DNA of 28,739 nucleotides from Candidatus Bathyarchaeota archaeon (GTDB taxonomy: Archaea > Thermoproteota > Bathyarchaeia > Hecatellales > Hecatellaceae). The stretch is from the NCBI GenBank assembly GCA_043811145.1, contig JBDRNN010000261.1:1-28739 (forward strand), given 5' to 3'. Shown piece by piece: positions 2,995-19,863 of the stretch. Position numbers and translations under genes: made by a program. How positions within the stretch are numbered: position 1 is the first letter of the stretch; the number at the start of each line of letters is the position of its first letter. Below the pieces are notes generated by a model. It saw nothing but the letters and a program-made list of their open reading frames with translations. It searched no databases and was not told the origin of the DNA.

Positions 2995-3741
2995 TCACCT
3001 CGCTAAGGGAACCTCAATGTAAGGTTCGGTTTTTATTTCATAAACCCATAATATCAGTGCTTTAGCAAACATGTGCATAAATTTACTGAAGGGTAGATAT
3101 GCCACAAGGGAGAAGGAGATAAGAGCGTGAACCAGATAGAGCGCTGAGTATAGGCTGGGGTCTATAATTGTCCATCGGCTCATCTCCACGAGGAAACCTG
3201 TACCTAAGCTAGCTAAAATCCAGGATGGAAAGGTAACATCGAATTCGACTGTGGTTGATCTAACCTTACCAATAACCGCCCTCCTGACTAAAGCGATGGT
3301 GCATCCTACCGCAACCATCATGCCGAAGAAGTCTAGGAGTATTTCTATAAACTCGGTAACTGTGAGAGTGGGAATTAGGTGAAGAGCAACAGCAGCGGGA
3401 GTTACTCCCAATAACACAGGTATCAAGGGGAGGGACGGAGGAACAAAAAACTCGAAATAGAAGAGAGCAAAATCCATGCTTACAAGACCAATTATTCCCC
3501 AAAAAATTAGCAGATGTACGACCCATCTAAAGTAGCTACGTAAATAAATCTGCCTCATCAAAAAGAGATCGACAATTAGAACTTTTAATAGAAGATAAAT
3601 TGCCTTAGGAAGGGAGACTTTAGTTCGACGATTTGTCTCAGGTGAAATACCACTACTCCACCGATAGAGGTTGAGAAGTATCCCTAGCGTTAAGACGGTT
3701 ATGGATGTAGTGCAAAGGTATATTACGTACCACGGAGCCAA
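2995..3741 (-). CDS. NarI/HdrE/DsrM-like membrane b-type cytochrome subunit
   Basis: About five TM helices with His in RWVVHLLIFWG, LVHAL and PFSKFMHMF. Lies 9 bp upstream of the HdrD-like gene. SD-like GAGGTTGGTG precedes the TTG. Confidence 0.85.
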   Translation of the reverse strand: MAPWYVIYLCTTSITVLTLGILLNLYRWSSGISPETNRRTKVSLPKAIYLLLKVLIVDLFLMRQIYLRSYFRWVVHLLIFWGIIGLVSMDFALFYFEFFVPPSLPLIPVLLGVTPAAVALHLIPTLTVTEFIEILLDFFGMMVAVGCTIALVRRAVIGKVRSTTVEFDVTFPSWILASLGTGFLVEMSRWTIIDPSLYSALYLVHALISFSLVAYLPFSKFMHMFAKALILWVYEIKTEPYIEVPLAR

Positions 3742-3947: not shown

Positions 3948-3974
3948 TTCAATATTTTGGGTAGCCAACATTTA
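3948..3974 (+). repeat. att-like direct repeat, left copy: TTCAATATTTTGGGTAGccAACATTTA
   Basis: 17-bp exact match and 25/27 overall match to 12433-12459. Confidence 0.9.
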
Positions 3975-3979
3975 GCTAA

Positions 3980-3997
3980 CACAATGTTTTAGAACTT
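3980..3997 (+). repeat. Internal inverted arm CACAATGTTTTAgAAcTT (pairs with 12411-12428)
   Basis: 3980-3991 is the exact reverse complement of 12417-12428. The match is 16/18 over the extended arm. Confidence 0.85.
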
Positions 3998-4142
3998 TTT
4001 ATGACAGAAAACGTCGGAATCAAAGTGACAACCCCCTGGGGGTGCTGAGATGGGAGGCGATCATTATGACATGAATCCGGTGGAGGATTCTCAGAATAAA
4101 AATATGTGTAACAAAAGTTACATTAGATAAAAAAGGGGAAGT

Positions 4143-5015
4143 TTAGAGCTCCTTTTTGAAACTGACTGCCGTTGCTACTCCGCCCAGAACTAACATGACT
4201 ATGCCTGCTATCATCAGCAGGGATATGTTGAAGGGTGAAGGCAATGGTGGCGATGTGAAGTTGTCGTTGGTGGTTGTGAAGAAGCTGAGTTTCAGGAAGT
4301 TTTCTCCGCTGACCCACTGCATGTAGCCGTAGACACGCCAGTCACCATCATTGGGTATAGTGTAGGATTTTGTCCAGTGGCTGTCTGTGTCTTTTGTGAG
4401 AGTCACGGTTGTCAGGGGTTCAAAGGTCTGCGCATTTTCAATATCCACATATACCTGAGCTATGTCCTGGGGATCTCGGGTGGCGACGAACTCAAAGTTG
4501 ATGTTTAACGTGTTCAGCTTGATTACCTGATCCGCAGAGGTCACGTCTATGCCGTTGACTCTGAAGTAGCCGTCAGGCTGCCCGGTTATGGCGTAGGTTG
4601 TATGTTCAAGGATGTTGGCTGGAGTCCAGCCGTCCCGGATAACCCAGTTGAATTGGTACAGGACACCGTTCCCGTTGGGAATTGTCCACTGCCATGAGTA
4701 AGTTTGGCTTCCATCCGGGTTAGTTGGCCAAGAAGATTTGGATGGTGTTGAGCTGTATCCAGTGGATGTTATTGTTAGGTCCGCACCTGCACCATGAACG
4801 TCATAAACCGTGATTGAGAGCTGTATCTCTGACCCAGCGTGAATGAGGTTAGCCGTGTTCGGGTCTGTGGAGTCGGGATAGATGGAGCGGATTTCAGGCG
4901 GAGTCGAATCTATTGATAACATGGACTGTGCTGGTGTGCTTGCGTCTGCTGCAAGAAGAACTGATCCGACAAGCAGCATGAGTACTCCTGCAAAAAAAAG
5001 TTGCTTAGATTTCAA
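4143..5015 (-). CDS. Hypothetical secreted protein with N-terminal signal peptide and C-terminal Pro-rich/TM/basic anchor
   Basis: Hydrophobic N-terminus (LFFAGVLMLLVGSVLLAADA), Thr/Asp-rich beta-type body and PPLPSP-TM-KK tail. GC-richer than the backbone. SD-like AGGTAA upstream. Confidence 0.8.
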   Translation of the reverse strand: MKSKQLFFAGVLMLLVGSVLLAADASTPAQSMLSIDSTPPEIRSIYPDSTDPNTANLIHAGSEIQLSITVYDVHGAGADLTITSTGYSSTPSKSSWPTNPDGSQTYSWQWTIPNGNGVLYQFNWVIRDGWTPANILEHTTYAITGQPDGYFRVNGIDVTSADQVIKLNTLNINFEFVATRDPQDIAQVYVDIENAQTFEPLTTVTLTKDTDSHWTKSYTIPNDGDWRVYGYMQWVSGENFLKLSFFTTTNDNFTSPPLPSPFNISLLMIAGIVMLVLGGVATAVSFKKEL

Positions 5016-5205
5016 GTTGATTACCTACAATAAAAATGGTTGCCAAATTATATTGCACCCAAAATTATAACAGCAAAAGCTACGAGGCCTTATTGGAAGG
5101 GCAAGAGGAAGCAGAACATAAAAACAGGAACAGTCTAAAGAAAAAACAATTACGATAGTACGGGATAAGGACGGGTAGTTAAATAATAAGTACCAAGTTT
5201 CTGTC

Positions 5206-5241
5206 GTGTGTGTGCATACCGAGGTACCCACACACACTTTT
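5206..5241. terminator. Stem-loop GTGTGTGTG...CACACACAC followed by a T-run
   Basis: 9-bp perfect arms (5206-5214 / 5229-5237) with an inner TACC/GGTA pair, then TTTT. Function unproven. Confidence 0.35.
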
Positions 5242-5267
5242 ATAACGATAGGTTCTTTATCTCGCAG

Positions 5268-5319
5268 AAAAGTTAAAAAATAACTTTTTATAGTTTTTAT
5301 CCTTTTTACGCAGTAATTT
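5268..5319 (+). repeat. Conserved non-coding site, copy A (AAGTT-N7-AACTT core plus TTAC-N3-GTAA box)
   Basis: 39/52 ungapped identity with 9377-9428 and identical spacing of two palindromic modules. Confidence 0.6.
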
Positions 5320-5355
5320 TGAAAGATTAAATTCCTGAAGAGGACAGATATTTGT

Positions 5356-6018
5356 ATGCGTGTTGTTGTTTCTTGGAGTGGCGGTAAGGAGAGCGGTCTC
5401 GCCTGCTATGAAGCCATCCATAAAGGTTTTGAAGTTGCCTATCTTTTGAATATGATAACTGAAGACGCAAAGGTATCTATGACTCACGGGATAAGTTCAA
5501 AATTACTCCATACACAATCGCAGGCTATAGGGATCCCGATAGTTCAAAGGAGCACAACCTGGAATACCTACGAAAAAGAATTCAAGAAGGCAGTATCTGA
5601 ACTAAAGCAGCAGAATGTAGAAGGTGTGGTTTTCGGAGATATCGACCTTCCGGAACACAGAAGTTGGAATGAGAGGGTTTGCAATGAGTTAAATGTTAAA
5701 CCCATTTTACCTTTATGGGAACAGAAACGTGAGCAAATACTCAACGGTTTTATAGATAAAGGATTTGAAGCACTCATAGTTAGCGCCAAAGCTGATTTAT
5801 TCGAGAATGAATGGGTTGGACATAAAATAGACAGAAACCTCATGGAATATTTACACGAACACAAGATTGACCTATGCGGCGAGTCAGGAGAATACCATAC
5901 ATTTGTTACCAACGGCCCGATATTTAGAAAACGCATAAAAATACTTGAGAGCAGAAAGATCATTAGGGACGGGTACGGGTTTCTGGATATTTTAAGATAC
6001 GAAATTCATGAGAAATAA
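5356..6018 (+). CDS. Diphthine-ammonia ligase (Dph6)-like PP-loop ATPase
   Basis: SWSGGKES PP-loop, VVFGDI and DLCGESGEYHTFVTNGPIF. Confidence 0.88.
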   Translation: MRVVVSWSGGKESGLACYEAIHKGFEVAYLLNMITEDAKVSMTHGISSKLLHTQSQAIGIPIVQRSTTWNTYEKEFKKAVSELKQQNVEGVVFGDIDLPEHRSWNERVCNELNVKPILPLWEQKREQILNGFIDKGFEALIVSAKADLFENEWVGHKIDRNLMEYLHEHKIDLCGESGEYHTFVTNGPIFRKRIKILESRKIIRDGYGFLDILRYEIHEK

Positions 6019-6152
6019 TCTAGCATTGTGCGTGTTACAGCAATGGTGCAGCCACCGAGATTTAAAACGGAAAGATCCAATTATTAACAATAAAGATCAT
6101 GAATGGTTCTTAACCGATACAGGCAAAGAAGTACCTTAAACACGGAACAGCA

Positions 6153-6840
6153 TCATGCAGCCGACAGGATAATAACTGAAACATTGAAAAAACTGTGAGC
6201 CATAACAGCAATGAGCACGCTTCCCTTGGTGTCGGAGATGCCGTCGTATTTTGGTAGTTTGTATGCGAGGAAATACCAGAGGATCCCCACGGCAAAGGCC
6301 ATGATTACGTAGAGTGGACTGAAGCCGGATAATGATGGTGTGGAAGACTGCCCAGATTCCGATGGAGGTGCCGGCTGCGATAAATTCGTTTTTTGTCCGC
6401 ACCAGCAGTGCGAGGATCATGCTGATTTTTAGGAATTCTTCAGCCGGAGCAACGAGGACCAGCTGCATGAGGCTTTCGCCCATGATTTGTGAGCCGAATG
6501 CGGCGATGCCGAACTGCGGAACATATAATAAACTGTTCACTGGGAAGACTAGGCCTGAGACGGCGACGTTTATCCAAGATATGAAGAAGGCACCAGCCAC
6601 ACCCAGTCCAGCATAAACCCAGTTGATTGTCGGCATGTTTCCTAGAAAAGATGGAATAGAATCGGTGGAGTCTTTCATGAAGACATGGAAGGCGATTACA
6701 GCTAGAACGCTGAACATCAACATGATGCTGAAGCTGACAACCACAGAGAACTGGCTGAACTGAAAATAGAACAACAGCAGAAACGAAATTACGTAAGGGA
6801 TGAAACAGAGAAAAACTGTTATGTCTGTAGCTGGTCGCAT
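6153..6840 (-). pseudogene. CPBP (CAAX/Abi) family intramembrane glutamic endopeptidase with a single-base frameshift near 6330
   Basis: APAEEFLK and IWAVFH motifs lie in one frame. After a one-base shift the frame reads SGFSPLYVIMAFAVGILW...SVLIAVMAHSFFNVSVIILSAA-stop (6153-6155), supplying the CPBP HxxxN motif. Confidence 0.8.
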
Positions 6841-6928
6841 TGTTAGTCAAATAAAAAATACTGTTGCTCAGTTCTACGACCAAGCTCTAAGCAGTTTTTA
6901 TATAGAAATGATGCATGTTCAGGAAAAT

Positions 6929-7135
6929 ATGGCCGACACCAGCCAAAGAAACGCCCGAGAAAACAATAATGCAGAAGATGAGATTGATGATGCGTTGAGA
7001 TGGCTTATCGCCTACACTCCGGACAGTTCTGGCAAATATGCGGAATGTCTTGAAAAGTTGCAGAAAAAAATCAGAGAGCTGAAAAAGCGGATCATAGATT
7101 TGGAAAGAAAGTCTGCTCCGCAATCAAATGAATAA
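6929..7135 (+). CDS. Small hypothetical protein with a C-terminal coiled coil
   Basis: The ATG at 6929 lies about 30 bp after a TTTATATA box and avoids overlap with the CPBP gene. Heptad-like LEKLQKKIRELKKRIIDLE. Confidence 0.5.
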   Translation: MADTSQRNARENNNAEDEIDDALRWLIAYTPDSSGKYAECLEKLQKKIRELKKRIIDLERKSAPQSNE

Positions 7136-7271
7136 ATTACAACGTTTTTTTGAAAAAATGTATAACCATAAAAAAGATGACGACTGGTAGCCTACCCAGC
7201 TAGTTTACGTATATTATCAGCAATTTTATCGATAACTTTAAAAATAAAAGATAGGGGAGGTTTATCTTCCT

Positions 7272-7499
7272 TTACCATGTGGGACTGACTGTCCTTCCAT
7301 GGGTTGTTGAAACCGTCCAGTGGGAGATGTCGACAGAGTTTGAGCTTGGGTTGTAAAGTTCAACCTACTCATTTCCAGAGTCAGTGCCACTCGGATTTTG
7401 CTCAACTTCAACCTTAAACTGCGACCCATTAAACTTAAAAATATAAGAATTAGAGTTCTGTAAAGCTGTTGCTAGATTAATCTGACTGGTAAAATTCGT
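7272..7499 (-). pseudogene. Lamin-tail-domain (LTD) protein remnant
   Basis: Manual translation EVEQNPSGTDSGNE*VELYNPSSNSVDISHWTVSTTHG matches the LTD NE...P....EWVELYN...VD.SGW pattern. TAG replaces the Trp codon at 7365-7367. Confidence 0.75.
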
Positions 7500-7542
7500 C
7501 TACTTTAAGAACAGTTAGGTATGGGATAGAATAGGGCTTAAC

Positions 7543-8469
7543 TTGCAAGAGATACCAATTACATTTTGGATAGCATTCCATGTTATAGTTGCTTTATTAC
7601 TCTTTATAGATCTGTCATATCATGGAAGAGCTTCTAAACTTAACTTTCGGCGAGATGTTATTTGGAGCATTATCTGGATAGCTGCAGGATTAGCATTTGG
7701 AGTTTTTATCTTTTGGTACTTCGGCTATAGAGGAGGTTTAGAATATTTTACAGCTTATATTGTAGAAAAATCGCTAAGCGTCGATAATCTTTTTGTTTTC
7801 ATAGTGATATTCAATTATTTTGCAGTTCCATTTGTTCACCAGCATAAAACTTTATTTTTAGGGATTCTTGGTGCCATGATTTTCAGGAGCATTTTTATAT
7901 TTGCAGGAATAGCTCTTTTGGGACAATTTAACTGGATGATTTACGTTTTTGGCGCTGTTTTATTGTATTCTGGATATGCGCTAGCTCGAGGTAAGATGGA
8001 GCGGGTTGATCCTGAAAAGAATAGGATAGTTAAGATTGCTAGAAGATTCCTTCCGATATCGTCTCAGTATGTTGGTGGCAAGTTCACATCTAAAAAGAGT
8101 GGAAAAATCATATTCACTCCTTTGATTCTAGCTCTGCTTGCAATAGAGACAACTGACATATTGTTTGCATTTGATTCAATTCCAGCAGTTTTGGCAATAA
8201 CTCAGGAATTTTACATAGCGTACACTTCAAATATAATGGCGATATTAGGCTTGAGAGCCCTATATTTTGTTCTTGCAAATGCTTTGCGTAGACTTGTTTA
8301 CCTAAGTAAAGGCTTAGCGATAGTTCTCTCATATTTAGGCTTTAAATTCATAGTATCTGCTTTTGGAATAGAGATACCCACTTTGCTCTCATTATTTGTT
8401 GTTTCAGGCATTGTTCTAATCTGCATATTGGCTTCTATATTTAAAGAGGTCCGTCACAGTCGTATATGA
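7543..8469 (+). CDS. TerC/Alx family metal-homeostasis membrane protein
   Basis: YIVEKSLSVDNLFVF, GILGAMIFR, IETTDILFAFDSIPAVLAIT and YTSNIMAILGLRALYF. Confidence 0.93.
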   Translation: MQEIPITFWIAFHVIVALLLFIDLSYHGRASKLNFRRDVIWSIIWIAAGLAFGVFIFWYFGYRGGLEYFTAYIVEKSLSVDNLFVFIVIFNYFAVPFVHQHKTLFLGILGAMIFRSIFIFAGIALLGQFNWMIYVFGAVLLYSGYALARGKMERVDPEKNRIVKIARRFLPISSQYVGGKFTSKKSGKIIFTPLILALLAIETTDILFAFDSIPAVLAITQEFYIAYTSNIMAILGLRALYFVLANALRRLVYLSKGLAIVLSYLGFKFIVSAFGIEIPTLLSLFVVSGIVLICILASIFKEVRHSRI

Positions 8470-8613
8470 GAAAAACTAAAGGTCACACCTATTTTATAAA
8501 CCCAATAAAATTTCTTCCTTACTTTAAAAACTACATAATGCAATATGCAGAACTATGAAAAAAGTTTAAGATCTGGCTCCGTTATCTACATGTCCTAAGA
8601 GTAGAGTAAAACA

Positions 8614-9075
8614 TTGAGTTTTGTTGAACTAATTCAAGTTACATTGGCGCCTGTTGTACTTATCACAGCGGTTGCTTTAATAAACATCTCACAATACGCC
8701 CGATACGGACGTATCCATGACAGGATAAGACAACTTCTTAAAGATGTTGAAAAAATAAATCTCGCTAAGATCTCTGAAGAGATACGAAACAAAAAGATTG
8801 CCGTCTCAAAGGATCAGCTAAGAATTTTTTTGGAAAGAGCTAGACTTGCTAAATGGTCATTAGTTTTAATGCAGCTTTCGTTAGTAGCTTCTGCGATAGA
8901 TGCCATCTTAATTTTTATTAATGTTGCAGTGCTTGTAGAGCTAGGTTTTGTTATAATCATAATATTTGGGTTTAGTGTTTTGCTAATTTTAATCGGAGCT
9001 ATTTTAGCAGCATTTGAAATATACAAATCATTAAAAGGGTTACATCTGGAAATTGAAGCAGTCATTAAGAGCTAG
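8614..9075 (+). CDS. DUF2721-like membrane protein
   Basis: IQVTLAPVVLI...RYGRIHDRIRQL followed by two TM helices. Confidence 0.7.
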   Translation: MSFVELIQVTLAPVVLITAVALINISQYARYGRIHDRIRQLLKDVEKINLAKISEEIRNKKIAVSKDQLRIFLERARLAKWSLVLMQLSLVASAIDAILIFINVAVLVELGFVIIIIFGFSVLLILIGAILAAFEIYKSLKGLHLEIEAVIKS

Positions 9076-9153
9076 CTTCTTTTAGTTTAAAGTTTAAGTT
9101 AAGGAATTTAGTAATATATTCTGGAGGCTAACCTTTGTCTAAGATGTTTGCAA

Positions 9154-9677
9154 TTACTCGTGTACGAAAGACACGGAAGAAAGATGAAGGCAGACACAAA
9201 GCCAAGAAGAAAAAGCTAGTTGACTAGCTTAATTTGGAGTCAAATTGTCCTTTCACTCGATATCATGATTTTATTTCATTTTTCTCGGCGATAGCGGCGA
9301 TTAGCCGCCTCAGCTCGGCGACCTGAAACATTTTCCCTGAGATTTGACTTTACCGAGTAAATTGGCGGAAACTATAAAAAGTTAAAATTTAACTTTTTTA
9401 CTGTTTTCCCTATTTTACCGAGTAATTTGTGAGTTAAGGAGAAATGTTTCACGAGTAGTTTTTAATAAAGAACGGAATGGGAAATAGCTTTAAATTCGAT
9501 AAGCCTGCATTGAAAAATGGCAAATATGAACAAACCCCCCCCCTCAAAATAAAAATTGGGGAAGATTTCAAGTGGTCTCCCTTTTCAAAAAATAAATACG
9601 GTGAGAAATTTTTAGATTTTAACTTTTAACCGTTTACTTCTTTCACTCGAGAATAATATTTCAAAGGGGGTTTTGTT
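9154..9677. repeat. Repeat-rich non-coding region
   Basis: TTTACCGAGTAA x2 (9349, 9414), CTTTCACTCGA x2 (9250, 9640), six ACTCG/CGAGT cores, a central palindrome at 9376-9398, and facing C9 (9535-9543) and G5 (9666-9670) tracts. Confidence 0.6.
9377..9428 (+). repeat. Conserved non-coding site, copy B
   Basis: Direct-orientation homologue of 5268-5319. Confidence 0.6.
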
Positions 9678-9781
9678 ACAAATTATAACGACATTGGAAG
9701 TTTGAGATTGGAAAAGAGTGGATATGTAAAAGTTAATCTGGGTTTCTATCTTAACCGTTTATGACAGGTTGTTTTTGTAAC

Positions 9782-10360
9782 ATGTTCGATGAAATCACGA
9801 TAATATTTCTTTCGTTATTTTTAATAATGGATGCATTTGGCAGTATGCCTATCTTTCTTTCTCTGACTACCGATGTTAAAACGAGGCGTAAACAAGCGTA
9901 TGTTACGAGCTACGCAGTCCTAGTTGCGGGGTTGGTATTATTTGTTTTTCTTTTCTTTGGCCAAGATATCTTAACTGTGTTTAAGATTCATCTTTCATCA
10001 CTCAAAATTGCGGGAGGTATGGTATTGGTGGCACTAGGCTTTGAGATAGTAGTTGGGATAGGTTTTATGCGTACAAGTTTTGGCTCATCGCCTGCAATAA
10101 CGCTGATAGGTACCCCGTTACTAACAGGACCAGGAGTAATCGCAACCACGATGATTTTCGTGCAGGAGTATGGATATTTGGTTACCGTTCTCGCCTCTCT
10201 TGCCGTTCTAGGTTCTAGCTGGGTTATTCTTTTTACCGCAAAATATCTGCGCCGTGTACTAGGCAAAAGTGGTTTGGATATTATTTCCAGAGTAATAGGT
10301 CTCCTACTGATTGCTATAGCGGTTGAACTCATCATCGATGGATTAAAGGCAGCCTTTTAA
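9782..10360 (+). CDS. MarC family membrane protein
   Basis: LFLIMDAFGSMPIFLSLT, LKIAGGMVL, GTPLLTGPGVIAT and IISRVIGLLLIAIAVELII. The ATG at 9782 is preferred over 9761. Confidence 0.93.
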   Translation: MFDEITIIFLSLFLIMDAFGSMPIFLSLTTDVKTRRKQAYVTSYAVLVAGLVLFVFLFFGQDILTVFKIHLSSLKIAGGMVLVALGFEIVVGIGFMRTSFGSSPAITLIGTPLLTGPGVIATTMIFVQEYGYLVTVLASLAVLGSSWVILFTAKYLRRVLGKSGLDIISRVIGLLLIAIAVELIIDGLKAAF

Positions 10361-10725
10361 GCAAACATTCGAAGAAATTAAAGCGCAGACTCAACTCATA
10401 GCCATTCAGAAGGTTACAAGGCTTTATTGATTATAAAGCAAAATGGGTTGGAGTCCCAACTGTTTACGTGAATGCTATGGACAGTTCAAGAACATGCTCA
10501 ATATGCGAGTTTAAAACAGACCTGGAAGAGCAGGAAAATCTCAACTGCCCCCAATGCGGCGTCACCATAAACAGACAAGTGAATGCCACTTTAAACCTCC
10601 TCAAAACTCAAGATGACACCCTAAGGTTCAGGGTGGATAGCCTCTCAAACGTAGAGATGCTCAGACCCTTAAACAAGGCTGAAATCCAAAAAGAGGAGGG
10701 AATTATTCAGCCATATGCCGAATAG
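10360..10725 (+). pseudogene. tnpB: IS200/IS605-family TnpB C-terminal remnant
   Basis: The frame extended upstream reads [42 protein letters not shown]...CPQCG...NRQVNATLNL. W is replaced by TAG at 10399-10401. The N-terminal part and tnpA are absent. Confidence 0.85.
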
Positions 10726-10750
10726 TTACCAAACAAAAAAATATACCTTT

Positions 10751-10766
10751 GTCCCCTCCGGGGGAC
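10751..10766. terminator. GC hairpin GTCCCC-TCCG-GGGGAC between convergent genes
   Basis: 6-bp perfect stem with T-tracts nearby on both strands. It could instead be the IS right-end hairpin. Confidence 0.4.
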
Positions 10767-10789
10767 TAGGCTTTTGAAAGTTTTCAGGG

Positions 10790-11815
10790 TTATGCGGAAT
10801 ATTGTACTGCGTCGCTTATGCTTACTGGCGATCCTGTCGAGTCAAGTCCGGTGACTGTTAGCGTGGCCGTGATGACGTCGCTGGTTGCCAGGTCCCAGAC
10901 AAGTTTGCCAGTCGCATCGAACTTGTTTATCTGGTTCACACCATAGTCAAGACGTTTAGCTGTGTCCACTGTGCTGCCGACGGTGTAGGTGTAGATCGTG
11001 TTGGTGCCATCCTGGGATAATGTGAATGATGTCAATGGGATGTATCCAACGCCGTGTAGGTAGACTGCGGATTCAGATGCCACCAGTTTCGTTTTGTCGG
11101 TTGAGTTGTATTTCAGCTCGTACTGGTAGAGCAGATGGCTGCGTTTGGTGGTGGTGAAGTTCAGATCCCATCCGGCAAATTTTGTGACTTTGGCTGTGCC
11201 GACGCTTGCTACATCATCCGGACTGGTTTTGAATGCGATTGCCTCATAGGTTCTCAGGAAGCCTTGTATGTTGACTGTTGGGTTTCCAGCCTCAGTGACA
11301 TACTTATCACCGATATAGACGGGTACTACGTAGTCTTTGATCTGATCATTTGTTACATCTTTGAATTCCCAGTCGTCGATGCGGGTGGTTACCTGGTTCA
11401 TTTTTTCAAGGTCCCAGTAGTATGTTTGTCCAGATTTGGGTGGTACGGTGAGGACGGCGTAAACGTAGCCTCCGTCTTGTTCGGTTACTTCCGCATCTGT
11501 CACGTCTCCGCTGCCTAACAGAACCCAGTTGCCGCCACGGTAGGCGTACCAGTAGAAGTCATAGTTGGTTCCTGATGTCAGTGCGGAGAGATCGAATGCG
11601 TCGTAACATGCTTCGTTGAGGTTGATTTCGCCGACGTAGAATGTTTCACCTGTAGTTGTTGTTCCTGTTTGTCCGGTGCCTGTGCCTGTTCCTGTTTGTG
11701 ATGTTTGCTGTGCTGGCCCGAAGGACAGATTGCCTGTTACGGCTGTAAAACCTAGCGATGCGATGATGACGAGTAGAAGAGCTCCGAGTACTGTGTTTTT
11801 AGTTCCTGCTTTCAT
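10790..11815 (-). CDS. Hypothetical N-terminally anchored/secreted protein with Thr-Gly linker and beta-rich ectodomain
   Basis: N-terminal TM, QTGTGTGTGQTGTTTTG linker and acidic/Thr/Tyr-rich body. Intact ORF in the GC-richer part of the island. Confidence 0.8.
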   Translation of the reverse strand: MKAGTKNTVLGALLLVIIASLGFTAVTGNLSFGPAQQTSQTGTGTGTGQTGTTTTGETFYVGEINLNEACYDAFDLSALTSGTNYDFYWYAYRGGNWVLLGSGDVTDAEVTEQDGGYVYAVLTVPPKSGQTYYWDLEKMNQVTTRIDDWEFKDVTNDQIKDYVVPVYIGDKYVTEAGNPTVNIQGFLRTYEAIAFKTSPDDVASVGTAKVTKFAGWDLNFTTTKRSHLLYQYELKYNSTDKTKLVASESAVYLHGVGYIPLTSFTLSQDGTNTIYTYTVGSTVDTAKRLDYGVNQINKFDATGKLVWDLATSDVITATLTVTGLDSTGSPVSISDAVQYSA

Positions 11816-11842
11816 GATGATATCCTTCTAATATAAAAATGG

Positions 11843-12145
11843 TTACTTTTTCCTTGCGTAGTAGGCTCCTCCACCAGCCAGTGCGATGCCGAATGCGATG
11901 AAGACTGCCTGAATTGGGCTTATGGGAATTGGGTTTGCTCCTGTGTCAACGAACAGTGACATCAAAGTGAAGCTGTCGCCGAAGACCGTGTTGATCTTCC
12001 CGATGACGTGGAAGTTTCCTTCAGCTGGAAACGTGTACTGTACACTCCATAATGTGTCCGCTGTCGTCTCCGCCAAAGTTGGTGTTGCTATGATGCGCCA
12101 TTCAGGGATGACTCCACCGTAGAGCTGTTTGACGGTGACCTGAAC
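11843..12145 (-). pseudogene. 5'-truncated C-terminal fragment of a paralogue of the 4143-5015 protein
   Basis: Open frame from 12145 without a good start. 13/36 ungapped identity to the 4143 protein, plus the same Pro-TM-RKK tail. Confidence 0.75.
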
Positions 12146-12386
12146 TCAAGGTCTCTTGTCGTCTGATCCAATTTTGAAGTGTATCTATGTGCTTGTAGAG
12201 TTCTTTTCCTTTCAACTGTTCGAATTCTTCAAGAACATCTTCGGGTGAACGACCCAGTCGTGTGAAATAGTTGTATGCGAAAACTGATGCAAAATACTTG
12301 TTTCCGAGGGAATCCAGCCATTTGGATATGGACGGGTGGGATGCTATCCATGGTTTCACGTTTGAGTTGCGGGTGTCAAGGACCAA
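12102..12386 (-). pseudogene. Probable N-terminal (core-binding) fragment of a tyrosine recombinase/integrase
   Basis: SISKWLDSL...YFTRLGRSPEDVLEE...HIDTLQNW resembles N-termini of archaeal site-specific integrases. It starts 47 bp inside the att repeat, behind a TATA-like TTTTATAAG. No catalytic domain is present. Confidence 0.5.
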
Positions 12387-12410
12387 GGTGAAACTAATTT
12401 CCGCAGCTGG

Positions 12411-12428
12411 AACTTATAAAACATTGTG
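12411..12428 (-). repeat. Internal inverted arm (pairs with 3980-3997)
   Basis: TAAAACATTGTG at 12417-12428 is the exact reverse complement of 3980-3991. Confidence 0.85.
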
Positions 12429-12432
12429 CCAA

Positions 12433-12459
12433 TTCAATATTTTGGGTAGAAAACATTTA
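12433..12459 (+). repeat. att-like direct repeat, right copy: TTCAATATTTTGGGTAGaaAACATTTA
   Basis: Overlaps the last codons and TGA stop of the 12434-13993 gene and has an 11-6-11 imperfect inverted architecture. Confidence 0.9.
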
Positions 12460-13993
12460 TGATGAACCTATAGGCCTTTGTGATCCATCCTAAAACTATC
12501 AGACCTATGTTAAAAACAATGGCTGCTGCGGGGAATCCAAGTTCATCCTCTATCCACTTGTCAAATCTAAGCCTTGTTCTAACAGAGACTGTTTTGCTAG
12601 GGTTGAAACTGTTTTTTTTGTCGATGCTCATCTTAACAAGCTTCATGAACTCGACAGCCGGTTGTCCTTTACCTAACCTCATAAAGAAATAGTTCCATAA
12701 ACCTGCTCCGTAGGGCTTCCCGTTACATTTGATTCCCAAGTTAACAATATCTTTAGATAGAGGGTAAGAAAGTATAAACTGAAATTTTCTCTTCTCGCTT
12801 AAAAAAAAGGACGGCATCATAACCATGGAGTTATGGGCGGCTACAAAACCCTTTACTGCAACATGTGCACGATAAAGCCGAGAATATCTATGGCATTTTT
12901 TTATGAAAAACTCTATTTTATTTAGAGGTATAATTACCTCTTCACCGAGAAATGAAGGTCCTAACCTCTTAACCCGAAGAGGCATAAATCTTCCTTCCCA
13001 AAGACCTTCTCCTGCTGAAGGCAAGAATGCAGCTTTACCTTCTTCAATTAGATTAGCGCAAAGATCGTGGAAAGTTTGAGATCCCCTCTCAACTTCCAAG
13101 TTTTCTCCTTCAAAAATAATTAAAAGGAGGGCGTCAGCCTCAGGTAGCTTTAGTTTTAGTTTCTTGCTCATCTCAAGGCAGCCTTGATCCAGAAACTCTA
13201 CATGGAAAGGTTTGATGTTGGAATGCAGTAGATTTATTAGGAGAGTTTGAGCGTCTGCTAAACTTTTGAAACTGTAGGCTAAAGGAAGAATCCTGTCATG
13301 TTTTGGATAAACTTTAATGACAGCCTCTGTAACTGTTCCTAAAGTTCCTTCAGCTCCTATGTATAGCCAGTTTAGGTTATATCCTGATGCGAAAAGTATC
13401 TGATTATTATTTGTTGTATTGATAATTTCACCTGTAGGAGTTACAACCTTTAAACTGGTCACTTGCTCTCCAACTGAACCGTATTTTAAGCTACCAATAC
13501 CTAAGCCTCCAGTTGATATCCATCCACCTACAGTTGCTGAAGGGGCGCTACTAGGATATGCGCCTAACATATAGCCTCTCGTATTAAGGTAGTCTTGAAG
13601 GTCCTTCCATCGCACTCCAGCTTGAACCTTCACTACCATCTCGTTCTTGTCAAAGTCTAAAATCTCGTTCATACCTGTCAAGTCAAGTAAGAGACCACCC
13701 CTACCTGGAACCGCCCCCCCGAAAGATGCGGTAGATGCTCCTCTGGGTGTAATAGGAATTCCAACTATATGCGCCCGACGAACAACTTCTGATACTTCGC
13801 TTGCAGTGTTAGGCCTGAATATTATGTCAGGGATCATTCGGAAAAATATTCTAATAACAGTAGTTCTAACTGGGCCTATAACTGGCGCTAAATCATGACT
13901 ATAAGCAATTCTTTCAAGTGTATCAGTTGTAACCTTCTCAGCTCCAAAATCTTTCAATAAACCCTCATAAAGTTCTAGCCAGTTTGTTCTCAA
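12434..13993 (-). CDS. FAD-binding oxidoreductase (GlcD/D-lactate dehydrogenase, VAO/PCMH-type fold)
   Basis: PITPRGASTASFGG, VQAGVRW, YPSSAPSATVGGWISTGGLG, IGAEGTLG and DKKNSFNPSK. Confidence 0.9.
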   Translation of the reverse strand: MRTNWLELYEGLLKDFGAEKVTTDTLERIAYSHDLAPVIGPVRTTVIRIFFRMIPDIIFRPNTASEVSEVVRRAHIVGIPITPRGASTASFGGAVPGRGGLLLDLTGMNEILDFDKNEMVVKVQAGVRWKDLQDYLNTRGYMLGAYPSSAPSATVGGWISTGGLGIGSLKYGSVGEQVTSLKVVTPTGEIINTTNNNQILFASGYNLNWLYIGAEGTLGTVTEAVIKVYPKHDRILPLAYSFKSLADAQTLLINLLHSNIKPFHVEFLDQGCLEMSKKLKLKLPEADALLLIIFEGENLEVERGSQTFHDLCANLIEEGKAAFLPSAGEGLWEGRFMPLRVKRLGPSFLGEEVIIPLNKIEFFIKKCHRYSRLYRAHVAVKGFVAAHNSMVMMPSFFLSEKRKFQFILSYPLSKDIVNLGIKCNGKPYGAGLWNYFFMRLGKGQPAVEFMKLVKMSIDKKNSFNPSKTVSVRTRLRFDKWIEDELGFPAAAIVFNIGLIVLGWITKAYRFIINVFYPKY

Positions 13994-14004
13994 GATTCGG
14001 TCAC

Positions 14005-15456
14005 CTAGATTCCCATCCTAAGCCTTTCCTGACTGAAGAGTTTTCGAGGATTTAGTATCCCATGGGGGTCGACTCGTTCCTTTATCGAACGCATTATTCT
14101 GGTCTGTGAAGGAAACACTTGTTCTAACAACCCGATGTTTACTAAGCCAATTCCATAGGGAAATGCTCCTAGTCCGCTTAACTCGATCCTGAGCCTTGAT
14201 GATAGACCATTGAATGCTTTCATTGAAACCTCGTCGGATCTATTCACCTTCGTTGAAAAACAAAACAGATTTTCGGCGTTTGATATTGAGCATACCATGG
14301 AAGCGATATTCAGAGAGGTATCTTTGCATATGTTGGCTTTTATGGCAATTGCCTCTGAGATTTTGTTATTAGGCGTTTTTATCTCTTCAACGATGGAGTG
14401 GTTCGATTCCTGTTGAGTGAAATTTGATCCCACGGATAGGATCTTCCAAGCCACTTCAGCCAAGTGAGGTTCTAACTTCTCTCCTTTTTTAGTAAGCATC
14501 GAATCATAAAATTCGGCTCTATTTTTATTTAACTCAGAGTCATCCTCATCAATTACAACAAGCAAATAATAAGACTGTGCAGAGAACAATTCTGCAGCTT
14601 GAAGCTGTTTCAGATATGCATCGTCAAAGATAGAGACAAAGTAGGGAAGTCTTCGACTCGACATAACTTCAGTATAAGCCTCTGAAGCATCTAATTCACT
14701 CTGATAGCGATATAGAACATATGTGGGAGATGCGTGTATGAGTTTTATGGCAAGAGTGATCTGGGTTATTACTCCCAAAGTGCCCTCCGATCCTAAGAGA
14801 AGCTCTTTGAGGTTGTACCCAGAGCCATAAGTTGAAACTTTTCCTCCACCAGTGCTAATTATGGGATCCTTTTCGGTTTGATAATAATAGGAAACTTTAG
14901 GATGAACAAAAAGGTAGTTGTAAATGCGATTTATGTCAATATACGGGCAAACAAAATTCATATGAAGAATCTCAGAGGCTACTGATCCGTGTTTTAGGGT
15001 GCCAATACCTAAACCTCCTTCTGCAACAAAACCTCCGATAGTGGCGTTTATGCCTTTCAAAGGAAGAATTCGAACTTTATATCCTTCTTCTGTTAAAACA
15101 CGAGTTAGTTCAGCATAAGTGGTTCCGGGTAAAACCGAAACCGTTAAGTTATCATGATCAATCTCCTTAACACCGGATAAATTGCTTGTGTCGAGAGTTA
15201 TTCCTCCCTCCACAGGAATGGCCTGACCTCTCATACTCGTAAGATTTCCAATTGGAGTTACTGGAATTTTGTTGTCTAGGCAATATTCCAGTATTTTTAA
15301 AACTTCTTTGCTGGTGAAGGGTTTTACGTTAATTATATCGTGCTTACTCGTCTCCAGGATATATTGTGGGGGATAGCTTAACCTTGAAATATCAAACTTT
15401 TCGACAGCATCATTCCCAGATAAAGATGCAAGCTGGTTAGCTATCCAGGTTACCAA
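14005..15456 (-). CDS. FAD-binding oxidoreductase (second, divergent paralogue)
   Basis: PVTPIG, ATIGGFVAEGGLG, LLLGSEGTLGVIT and KERVDPHGILNPRK. Confidence 0.88.
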   Translation of the reverse strand: MVTWIANQLASLSGNDAVEKFDISRLSYPPQYILETSKHDIINVKPFTSKEVLKILEYCLDNKIPVTPIGNLTSMRGQAIPVEGGITLDTSNLSGVKEIDHDNLTVSVLPGTTYAELTRVLTEEGYKVRILPLKGINATIGGFVAEGGLGIGTLKHGSVASEILHMNFVCPYIDINRIYNYLFVHPKVSYYYQTEKDPIISTGGGKVSTYGSGYNLKELLLGSEGTLGVITQITLAIKLIHASPTYVLYRYQSELDASEAYTEVMSSRRLPYFVSIFDDAYLKQLQAAELFSAQSYYLLVVIDEDDSELNKNRAEFYDSMLTKKGEKLEPHLAEVAWKILSVGSNFTQQESNHSIVEEIKTPNNKISEAIAIKANICKDTSLNIASMVCSISNAENLFCFSTKVNRSDEVSMKAFNGLSSRLRIELSGLGAFPYGIGLVNIGLLEQVFPSQTRIMRSIKERVDPHGILNPRKLFSQERLRMGI

Positions 15457-19726: not shown

Positions 19727-19863
19727 GCCGGGATGGCTGAGTGGTCAAAAGCGCAGATTCAGCTCGAATCCACCGAGCTAAAGCGGAAGCCTTGAGTTTG
19801 ACCTATAAAGAAAGCCTGTGGCCCTTCTGGGTCTCGCGGGTTCAAATCCCTCTCCCGGCGCCA
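19727..19863 (+). tRNA. tRNA-Ser(UGA) with two introns (29/30: 19757-19788; 37/38: 19797-19812), CCA encoded
   Basis: Acceptor GCCGGGA/TCCCGGC, G73, GGTTCAAATCC T-loop and a long variable arm. The anticodon stem CAGGC/GCCTG with loop CT-TGA-GA forms only after both inserts are removed. Confidence 0.88.

Follow-up and report, generated by a model that had tools for sequence, protein, structure and literature searches.

An archaeal island with Ig-like anchored proteins and a CPBP protease gene: candidate relic of a mobile-element surface module

The 28,739-nt contig JBDRNN010000261.1 of a Candidatus Bathyarchaeota archaeon (assembly GCA_043811145.1; the whole contig is called the window below) contains an 8.5-kb island, 3948-12459, that is bracketed by direct repeats. 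The island carries an intact open reading frame (ORF A) and the remnant of a paralogous gene (B'), both belonging to a family of proteins with a C-terminal helix and a basic tail, together with an intact gene for a 341-a.a. protein (p341) and a frameshifted gene for a CPBP intramembrane protease. On balance, the best explanation of the island as a whole is that it is the relic of an undescribed surface module of archaeal mobile elements. The genome (G000) is metagenome-assembled and 88% complete (1.53 Mb in 284 contigs).

ORF A begins with a hydrophobic stretch and ends in ...SPPLPSPFNISLLMIAGIVMLVLGGVATAVSFKKEL; the frame of B', open for 100 codons, ends in ...NPIPISPIQAVFIAFGIALAGGGAYYARKK. 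A first-pass annotation, made from the letters of the window, had proposed that the two are paralogous (13 of 36 residues identical without gaps, by hand count), and our searches bear this out: ORF A finds positions 11876-12097 in its own genome (E-value 1.9e-5, 36% identity, ORF A residues 199-276), and a profile of the family matches B' with an E-value of 1.3e-20 (1.5e-16 with a later profile). The similarity is thus not due to chance, and since the match covers only profile positions 188-281 of 283, B' is the last third of a second gene. ORF A and B' are the only two family copies in the assembly. A word-index homologue search with ORF A returned only ORF A itself; an exhaustive HMMER search collected 155 representative proteins at E ≤ 1e-3 (62 at E ≤ 1e-10), mostly of 270-300 a.a. 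and aligned end to end. None of ORF A, B' and p341 has a family match in Pfam, NCBIfam or PHROGs. A variant of ORF A that is ∼88% identical was found in another sequencing run, and 20 of the 32 listed differing sites fall on third codon positions (binomial p 6.9e-4; positions assigned by hand), a bias which argues that ORF A is a real gene.

The distribution of the family is patchy. Near-full-length members are confined to four of 301 genomes in the class, this one included (G000, G095, G188 and G191), and no family member was found in the genomes of 40 closer relatives. An Atlas look-up, to be taken as a lead only, gave scores of at most 0.87, with the nearest clusters mostly from Thermoplasmatota.

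The AlphaFold2 model of ORF A, built on an alignment of 107 sequences (mean predicted local distance difference test score, pLDDT, 85.1), has a helix at residues 2-23, two beta-sandwiches (∼40-145 and 147-248), a low-confidence linker and a second helix at 266-289. Foldseek relates the model to generic tandem immunoglobulin (Ig)/macroglobulin-type domains (e.g. complement C3, filamin and SiiE; E-values ∼1e-7, TM-scores ≤0.43). The family proteins are therefore predicted to start with a helix, to continue with two Ig-like domains and a variable linker, and to end in a helix with a G-x6-G pattern and a Lys/Arg tail. For the family and for p341, signal peptides of class III (pilin type) were weighed and, by eye only, set aside.

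Homologues of ORF A co-occur with CPBP genes, a point on which the first-pass annotation had staked its proposal. A metagenome scan added 17 further family loci, and the counts that follow refer to 24 non-window loci with a family member, which form 17 lineages when family proteins at least 60% identical are grouped. A CPBP gene lies on the same strand in 14 of the 24 loci (11 of the 17 lineages), with gaps of 0-2819 nt to the family gene: 0-4 nt in seven loci, 49-80 nt in three and 878-2819 nt in four. PF02517 is matched above its cut-off in L038, L046, L049, L052, L056, L057 and L061 (also in L081), and the remaining CPBP genes were recognised by our own profiles. By our own arithmetic, this amounts to 14 CPBP genes in 169 kb of loci, as compared with two PF02517 matches in the whole 1.53-Mb genome. 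Four of the six lineages without a CPBP gene are known only from contigs of at most 3.5 kb.

Gene order tells the same story. On the minus strand of the window the order is B' > p341 > CPBP > A, which corresponds to the order of L079 (family-like > p341 > membrane protein > CPBP) joined to that of L052 (p341 > CPBP > 65-a.a. membrane protein > 640-a.a. anchored protein > family). The proposed co-occurrence with the protein encoded at 10790 (p341) also held: p341 adjoins the family in seven of the 24 loci, and it adjoins a CPBP gene in L079 and L081, both of which are without a full family member. The profile of p341 matches 11 other loci, and p341 itself is similar to L052:1-870 with an E-value of 3.5e-43. 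Its AlphaFold2 model is poor (pLDDT 52.1) and unfit for structure search. In another genome, locus L080 (G095:C142) contains a C-terminal fragment of a gene of the p341 family (7493-7960) and a fragment of the neighbouring membrane protein (5235-5450) amid ordinary genes of the chromosome (EF-2 and GMP synthase); these fragments look like a second decayed relic of such an element.

The CPBP gene of the window is split by one frameshift. The frame at 6136-6846 reads to ...GIWAVFH and then degenerates, and the frame at 6153-6416 continues with ...PLYVIMAFAVGILWYF...AVMAHSFFN, which places the frameshift just after the FH motif, near 6340-6350. PF02517 gives 15.8 bits on 6331-6474 (cut-off 22.4), with only the first half matched, and neither frame alone has a match in the library scans. 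The first part of the gene is nonetheless similar to the CPBP protein of L052 (E-value 1e-12) and to a profile of the L052-type clade (E-value 2.5e-15), which comprises 36 clusters of ∼220-a.a. proteins, all with PF02517. A profile of the CPBP proteins of the G191/G095/G188 type was also tried and does not find the window gene; the link came via the L052 clade. In CPBP proteins the Glu-Glu, His and His...Asn residues are catalytic, and these motifs are present across the two frames of the window gene. No near-invariant residue is lost: E136, E137, K140 and H169 come from the first frame, and A186, F187, G190, S202, A206, H210 and N214 from the second. The first motif reads EExxK in the CPBP proteins of these elements, the canonical CPBP motif being EExxxR. 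Homology and the retention of all near-invariant residues indicate that the window gene belongs to the CPBP set of the module and was broken by one recent frameshift or by an assembly error. That a CPBP gene of similar G+C content sits in the same island had been stated before and is correct (0.474, as compared with 0.494, 0.495 and 0.512 for ORF A, p341 and B'); the gene is frameshifted, however.

The borders of the island are 27-nt direct repeats (Table 1). A direct-repeat search found two matches where none was expected (100 shuffles). The right repeat spans the final eight codons and the stop codon of a gene for a flavin adenine dinucleotide (FAD)-linked oxidase (12434-13993, minus strand; PF01565 and PF02913), so that the island has the flanking direct repeats, one overlapping the end of the target gene, of an element integrated by a tyrosine recombinase. 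Next to this repeat, the frame at 12102-12413 aligns to residues 16-95 of a 420-a.a. ORF on contig C179 (40% identity, E-value 8e-17), which itself matches PF00589 (Phage_integrase) weakly, at 15.8 bits. From this similarity we read the island copy, in which ∼90 N-terminal residues remain, as a putative truncated recombinase gene. Because the recombinase homology stops within ∼20 nt of the start of B', a single deletion probably took the remainder of the recombinase gene together with the initial two thirds of B.

The island is real but mosaic, with plus-strand genes lying between the genes of the module. ORF A, the CPBP gene, p341, B' and the recombinase remnant all have high G+C contents, at or above the 97.6th percentile of the 1-kb windows of the genome (mean 0.403, standard deviation 0.026), and the plus-strand genes (encoding a diphthamide-synthase-like protein, TerC, DUF2721 and MarC) are host-like or low in G+C (Table 1). 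The diphthamide-synthase-like gene has a 33%-identical paralogue on contig C191; a search for TerC in 20 relatives gave none at E ≤ 1e-10. A 17-nt TATA-like motif, in two copies, lies just upstream of the starts of ORF A and p341 and may be a promoter.

Table 1. Features of the island 3948-12459 (+ and - are the plus and minus strands).
Feature	Position	Strand	Remarks
Left direct repeat (att-like)	3948-3974		25/27 identical to 12433-12459
ORF A, intact 290-a.a. family member	4143-5015	-	G+C 0.494; KKEL tail
TATA-like motif, candidate promoter, 9 nt upstream of ORF A start	5025-5041	-	15/17 identical to 11828-11844
Diphthamide-synthase-like gene, between CPBP gene and ORF A	5356-6018	+	PF01902, E 1e-57; G+C 0.401
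CPBP (Rce1-like) intramembrane protease gene, frameshifted	6153-6840	-	Two frames; G+C 0.474
111-a.a. ORF	6800-7135	+	Matches weak, under curated cut-offs
TerC	7543-8469	+	Pfam E 2.2e-44; G+C 0.354
DUF2721	8614-9075	+	Pfam E 1.3e-20; G+C 0.344
MarC	9761-10360	+	Pfam E 2.4e-39; G+C 0.407
TnpB remnant, C-terminal part only	10402-10725	+	NF040570 positions 318-388 of 389, E 5.3e-16; PF07282
p341, intact 341-a.a. protein, putatively exported	10790-11815	-	Matches L052:1-870; G+C 0.495
Second copy of TATA-like motif, 12 nt upstream of p341 start	11828-11844	-	Repeat with 5025-5041
B', remnant of second family member: partial second Ig-like domain, linker, helix, RKK tail	11843-12145	-	Profile matches; G+C 0.512
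Tyrosine-recombinase-like gene, putative N-terminal remnant, adjoins right repeat	12102-12413	-	Similar to C179 ORF; G+C 0.455
Right direct repeat	12433-12459		Holds 3' end of FAD-oxidase gene

Some further observations concern the island and its surroundings. The segments 5268-5319 and 9369-9428 share a direct repeat of 52 nt, AT-rich and 75% identical, and an inverted repeat of 29 nt that is 90% complementary. One segment precedes the diphthamide-synthase-like gene and the other the MarC block, and contigs of a public sequencing run (X1, see below) touch both. A shared promoter is one candidate role; a scar of recombination, with a bearing on the entry of the plus-strand genes, is another. 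The target gene is one of two tandem FAD-linked oxidase paralogues (12434-13993 and 14005-15456, both on the minus strand), the island being at the 3' end of the downstream one, and the island parts this oxidase from a nitrate-reductase-gamma-like membrane protein (2995-3741) and an HdrD-like CCG/4Fe-4S protein (1762-2985). The genome has ten Phage_integrase matches above the cut-off in addition to the divergent 420-a.a. one on C179, which is many recombinases for 1.5 Mb (the contigs are C115, C275, C46, C144, C56, C96, C18, C163 and C179).

The C-terminal tails have the predicted layout: in both translations from the window a Pro-containing linker is followed by a hydrophobic helix and a basic end, as the first-pass annotation had described. 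Across the family, G271 and G278, both inside the C-terminal helix, are kept in 98 and 95 of 107 sequences, respectively; of the 63 sequences (out of 107) that have the column ∼10 residues ahead of the helix, 61 carry a Pro there; and the linker is variable, with K/R conserved at the end. A strong C-terminal helix is present in 139 of the 150 representatives listed, and in 128 it is followed by two or more K/R (median tail of five residues). The conserved tail motif expected earlier did not materialise: what is conserved is the pair of helix glycines, one Pro and the K/R end, and Cys occurs in 30 of the 139 tails, inside the helix at varying places, with no Cys invariant and none in either window tail.

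These tails raise the question of whether the module is a true CTERM-type sorting system, in which a tripartite tail common to many element proteins would be removed by the CPBP protein, acting as a myxosortase-like sortase, and the proteins re-anchored. There is precedent, as CPBP enzymes process MYXO-, JDVT-, Synerg- and CGP-CTERM signals, which in the accessible text of that study consist of a signature motif with an invariant Cys, a helix and an Arg cluster (10.1101/2023.06.07.544157). The helix and K/R tails of the family would fit, C-terminally anchored ORFs with a basic tail are frequent in the family loci (57 of 207 versus 44 of 1554 in the genome, by a crude criterion and with family members included), and the CPBP proteins of the elements are weakly similar to MrtS, MrtJ and Mrt_core. 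However, they fall far below the curated cut-offs of every named myxosortase family (at best 52 bits for MrtS, cut-off 130, and 33.8 bits for MrtJ, cut-off 75), and four of nine have no NCBIfam Mrt match at all. Beside the missing invariant Cys and signature motif, ORF A has no NCBIfam match at E ≤ 1, including the CTERM and archaeosortase (PGF-CTERM and kin) sorting-signal models, and B' has only a sub-cut-off match to an LPXTG anchor model (14.7 bits, cut-off 15.9) and no CTERM sorting-signal model at E ≤ 1. In a crude comparison, with ORFs called within the analysis, the family-tail profile scores other element tails (n = 35) at a median of 3.4 bits versus 2.7 for background tails (n = 48; Mann-Whitney p 0.048), and G-x6-G is found in 15 of 18 family tails, six of 35 other element tails and eight of 48 background tails. 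Since tails outside the family are barely above background and G-x6-G is not enriched among them, there appears to be no general CTERM system; judged by these scores, other anchored element proteins do not clearly have this tail, and we consider CTERM-type sorting improbable. Of the CTERM/CPBP system suggested at first, the CPBP association thus stands, and the signature motif, membership in a named Mrt family and a tail clearly common to other proteins do not.

The scenario that we favour is as follows. A mobile element would have inserted at the 3' end of the FAD-oxidase gene and then decayed, the B' remnant, p341, the frameshifted CPBP gene and ORF A being the presumed leftovers of a module that is contiguous in related elements. 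The C-terminal helix, with its G-x6-G face, and the Lys/Arg tail would hold the putatively exported two-Ig protein in the membrane, and the module most likely serves attachment or recognition by decorating the host membrane (and, in case the element forms particles, any membrane-derived particle as well). The link of the family with CPBP is real, and for its mechanism we infer that the CPBP protein probably acts inside the membrane on a protein of the module, the glycine-bearing anchor of the family being the prime candidate. The arrangement would be that of a dedicated pair of protease and substrate and not that of a general CTERM sortase. Helix glycines are common in substrates of intramembrane proteases, and the tight operon link and the family-specific helix glycines would fit a dedicated membrane partnership.

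The CPBP protein may also have a different role. The main rival explanation is that it is an immunity or superinfection-exclusion factor and that the family proteins stay anchored and uncut, which we regard as a real though lesser possibility. Prokaryotic CPBP proteins are known for an 'Abi/self-immunity' role. Two family-bearing lineages without a nearby CPBP gene and the lack of a conserved cleavage motif would agree with it, as would a CAAX-like protease read as a self-immunity protein on a plasmid-like element of Asgard archaea (PMC11529989, in its accessible part). The same-strand, tight and often overlapping arrangement of the genes (the gaps of 0-4 nt and 49-80 nt given above) speaks for the dedicated pair instead, and the family-specific helix glycines are more easily explained by a direct membrane partnership; neither point is decisive.

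The related loci indicate what kind of element the module belonged to. L042 carries genes for a tyrosine integrase and a HerA/DUF87-like ATPase. Other related contigs code for an Hjc resolvase, for AAA ATPases and for an XPB helicase that includes GINS domains, and further ones for a DNA ligase, a DNA methylase and a MoxR-like ATPase; as a group, the related contigs are rich in small membrane proteins. Close relatives are also present on longer contigs, of up to 43.8 kb for the P0152 cluster and of 20-68 kb for the CPBP clusters P0170, P0176, P0192 and P0199. The related elements are mobile, and may be viruses or plasmids alike. A PHROGs search with ORF A, p341 and the module proteins of L042/L043 returned an integrase and one ATPase family of unknown function, and nothing else. 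Scans of genome contigs with two further queries, A2 and P0152, gave no confirmed relatives. A short, very basic N-terminal motif recurs on otherwise unlike proteins within an element, a DNA ligase among them, and could be a packaging, targeting or DNA-binding tag. One type of this motif is seen in the G191/G095/G188/L046 elements (L042:9265-12264, L039:1-2889, L040:178-1551, L043:6408-7244, L046:490-2328 and L038:4771-5310) and another in L079 (12612-13655, 13673-14509, 14692-15474 and 15491-17443). In L050, two family members without a CPBP gene lie beside XPB-helicase and GINS-domain genes; this locus has no nucleotide similarity to the window.

Several observations weigh against the mobile-element surface module. 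The module genes of the window are not adjacent, and host-like or low-G+C plus-strand genes interleave with them. No empty integration site is available for comparison, the flanking membrane-subunit gene not being found in 20 relatives. Among the longer related loci, L047 (9.0 kb) and L050 (20.8 kb together with L055) carry the family and have no CPBP gene nearby. No cleavage or signature motif next to the helix is conserved in the 107-sequence alignment or in the 139 tails. One public sequencing run (X1) matched the window, with 8% of words shared, and its contigs bridge neither the CPBP frameshift nor any junction. Family-library scans recognised no viral or conjugative hallmark (capsid, terminase, conjugation genes) in any related locus, and a viral contig collection held no relatives (queries P0002, P0003, p341, A2 and P0152).

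The interleaving and the frameshift could also be assembly artefacts, i.e. a chimeric contig and a base-calling error. The assembly is fragmented and incomplete, G+C alternates sharply along the island, and past the frameshift the other frame retains all seven near-invariant residues, which would fit an error as well as a very recent change. Yet the whole stretch is enclosed by the direct repeats, its module genes come in the order seen in intact relatives, and three pieces from the independent run X1 (4307-4589, 6357-6620 and 9329-9527) are 100% identical to the island, though none bridges a junction or the frameshift. We therefore think that artefacts are a poor candidate for explaining the interleaving and the frameshift.

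As to the envelope module of a membrane-containing virus, the other suggestion of the first-pass annotation, the absence of viral hallmarks and of relatives in the viral collection leaves the label 'virus-like' unproven, and the suggestion is neither shown nor excluded. A bolder version seems unlikely to us: a capsid-less lineage of enveloped viruses, or vesicle-forming plasmids, of Thermoplasmatota-like archaea would use their own Cys-independent EExxK CPBP protein for maturing or releasing attachment proteins via the G-x6-G anchor, and the window would be a fossil of them.

Outside the island, an Rfam search reports a 134-nt tRNA at 19727-19860 (plus strand; 35 bits, gathering threshold 29), and ARAGORN did not report it there or elsewhere in the window; such a length points to an archaeal tRNA with an intron.

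Taken by itself, the window yields a modest result, a decayed island. What recurs is a set of three linked families: the two-Ig-domain anchored proteins, p341 and a dedicated CPBP clade. The first two are new to Pfam, NCBIfam and PHROGs, whereas the CPBP clade falls short of every named CPBP family in NCBIfam. Mobile elements have seldom been detected in Thermoplasmatota (the accessible text of PMC13573593 counts only 30 provirus regions across 5041 Thermoplasmatota plus 2275 Nanobdellota genomes). The viral collection holds none of the contigs on which the three families recur. Profiles of the three could mark such elements in metagenomes, and intact family-CPBP pairs are available in L046, L052 and L056. 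If the CPBP protein processes the anchors, CPBP-based sorting would extend to mobile elements and to Cys-free signals.

The module is not described in the literature that we searched on CPBP/CAAX proteins, archaeal virus envelopes, proviruses and Thermoplasmatota (main texts, supplements excluded), but three known systems resemble it in part. The first is a plasmid-like element of Atabeyarchaeia (Asgard), which similarly has a membrane protease of the Glu-Glu CPBP type on an archaeal mobile element beside several membrane proteins; in the accessible part of that report the CAAX-like protease is read as self-immunity and the seven membrane proteins as a possible conjugation or secretion system (PMC11529989). 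Its host is of another phylum, and the likeness is one of description. The second is the envelope module of pleolipoviruses (VP4 spike, VP3 and a conserved ATPase), which, as far as the accessible text goes, likewise has a C-terminal helix anchor of ∼20 residues and small membrane proteins with a P-loop ATPase, on an element that may carry an integrase and has no capsid gene (PMC10599561). In contrast, our family has two tandem Ig-like domains and no PHROGs match, no pleolipovirus spike is among the PDB matches listed, and PHROGs finds no homologues of the Pleolipoviridae VP4 spike, VP3 or ATPase among ORF A, p341 and the L042/L043 module proteins; CPBP or CAAX proteins are not mentioned in the accessible text of that paper (PMC10599561). 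The third parallel is with the myxosortase/MYXO-CTERM systems, including the archaeal CGP-CTERM with MrtA, in which, in the accessible parts of both sources, a CPBP protease is genomically linked to exported proteins with a linker, a transmembrane helix and a basic cluster (10.1101/2023.06.07.544157; PMC11980579). Unlike these, the signal of our family has neither an invariant Cys nor a signature motif and the proteases stay under every named Mrt cut-off; the first CPBP motif is EExxK, the genes are located on mobile elements, and apparently a single protein family is served.

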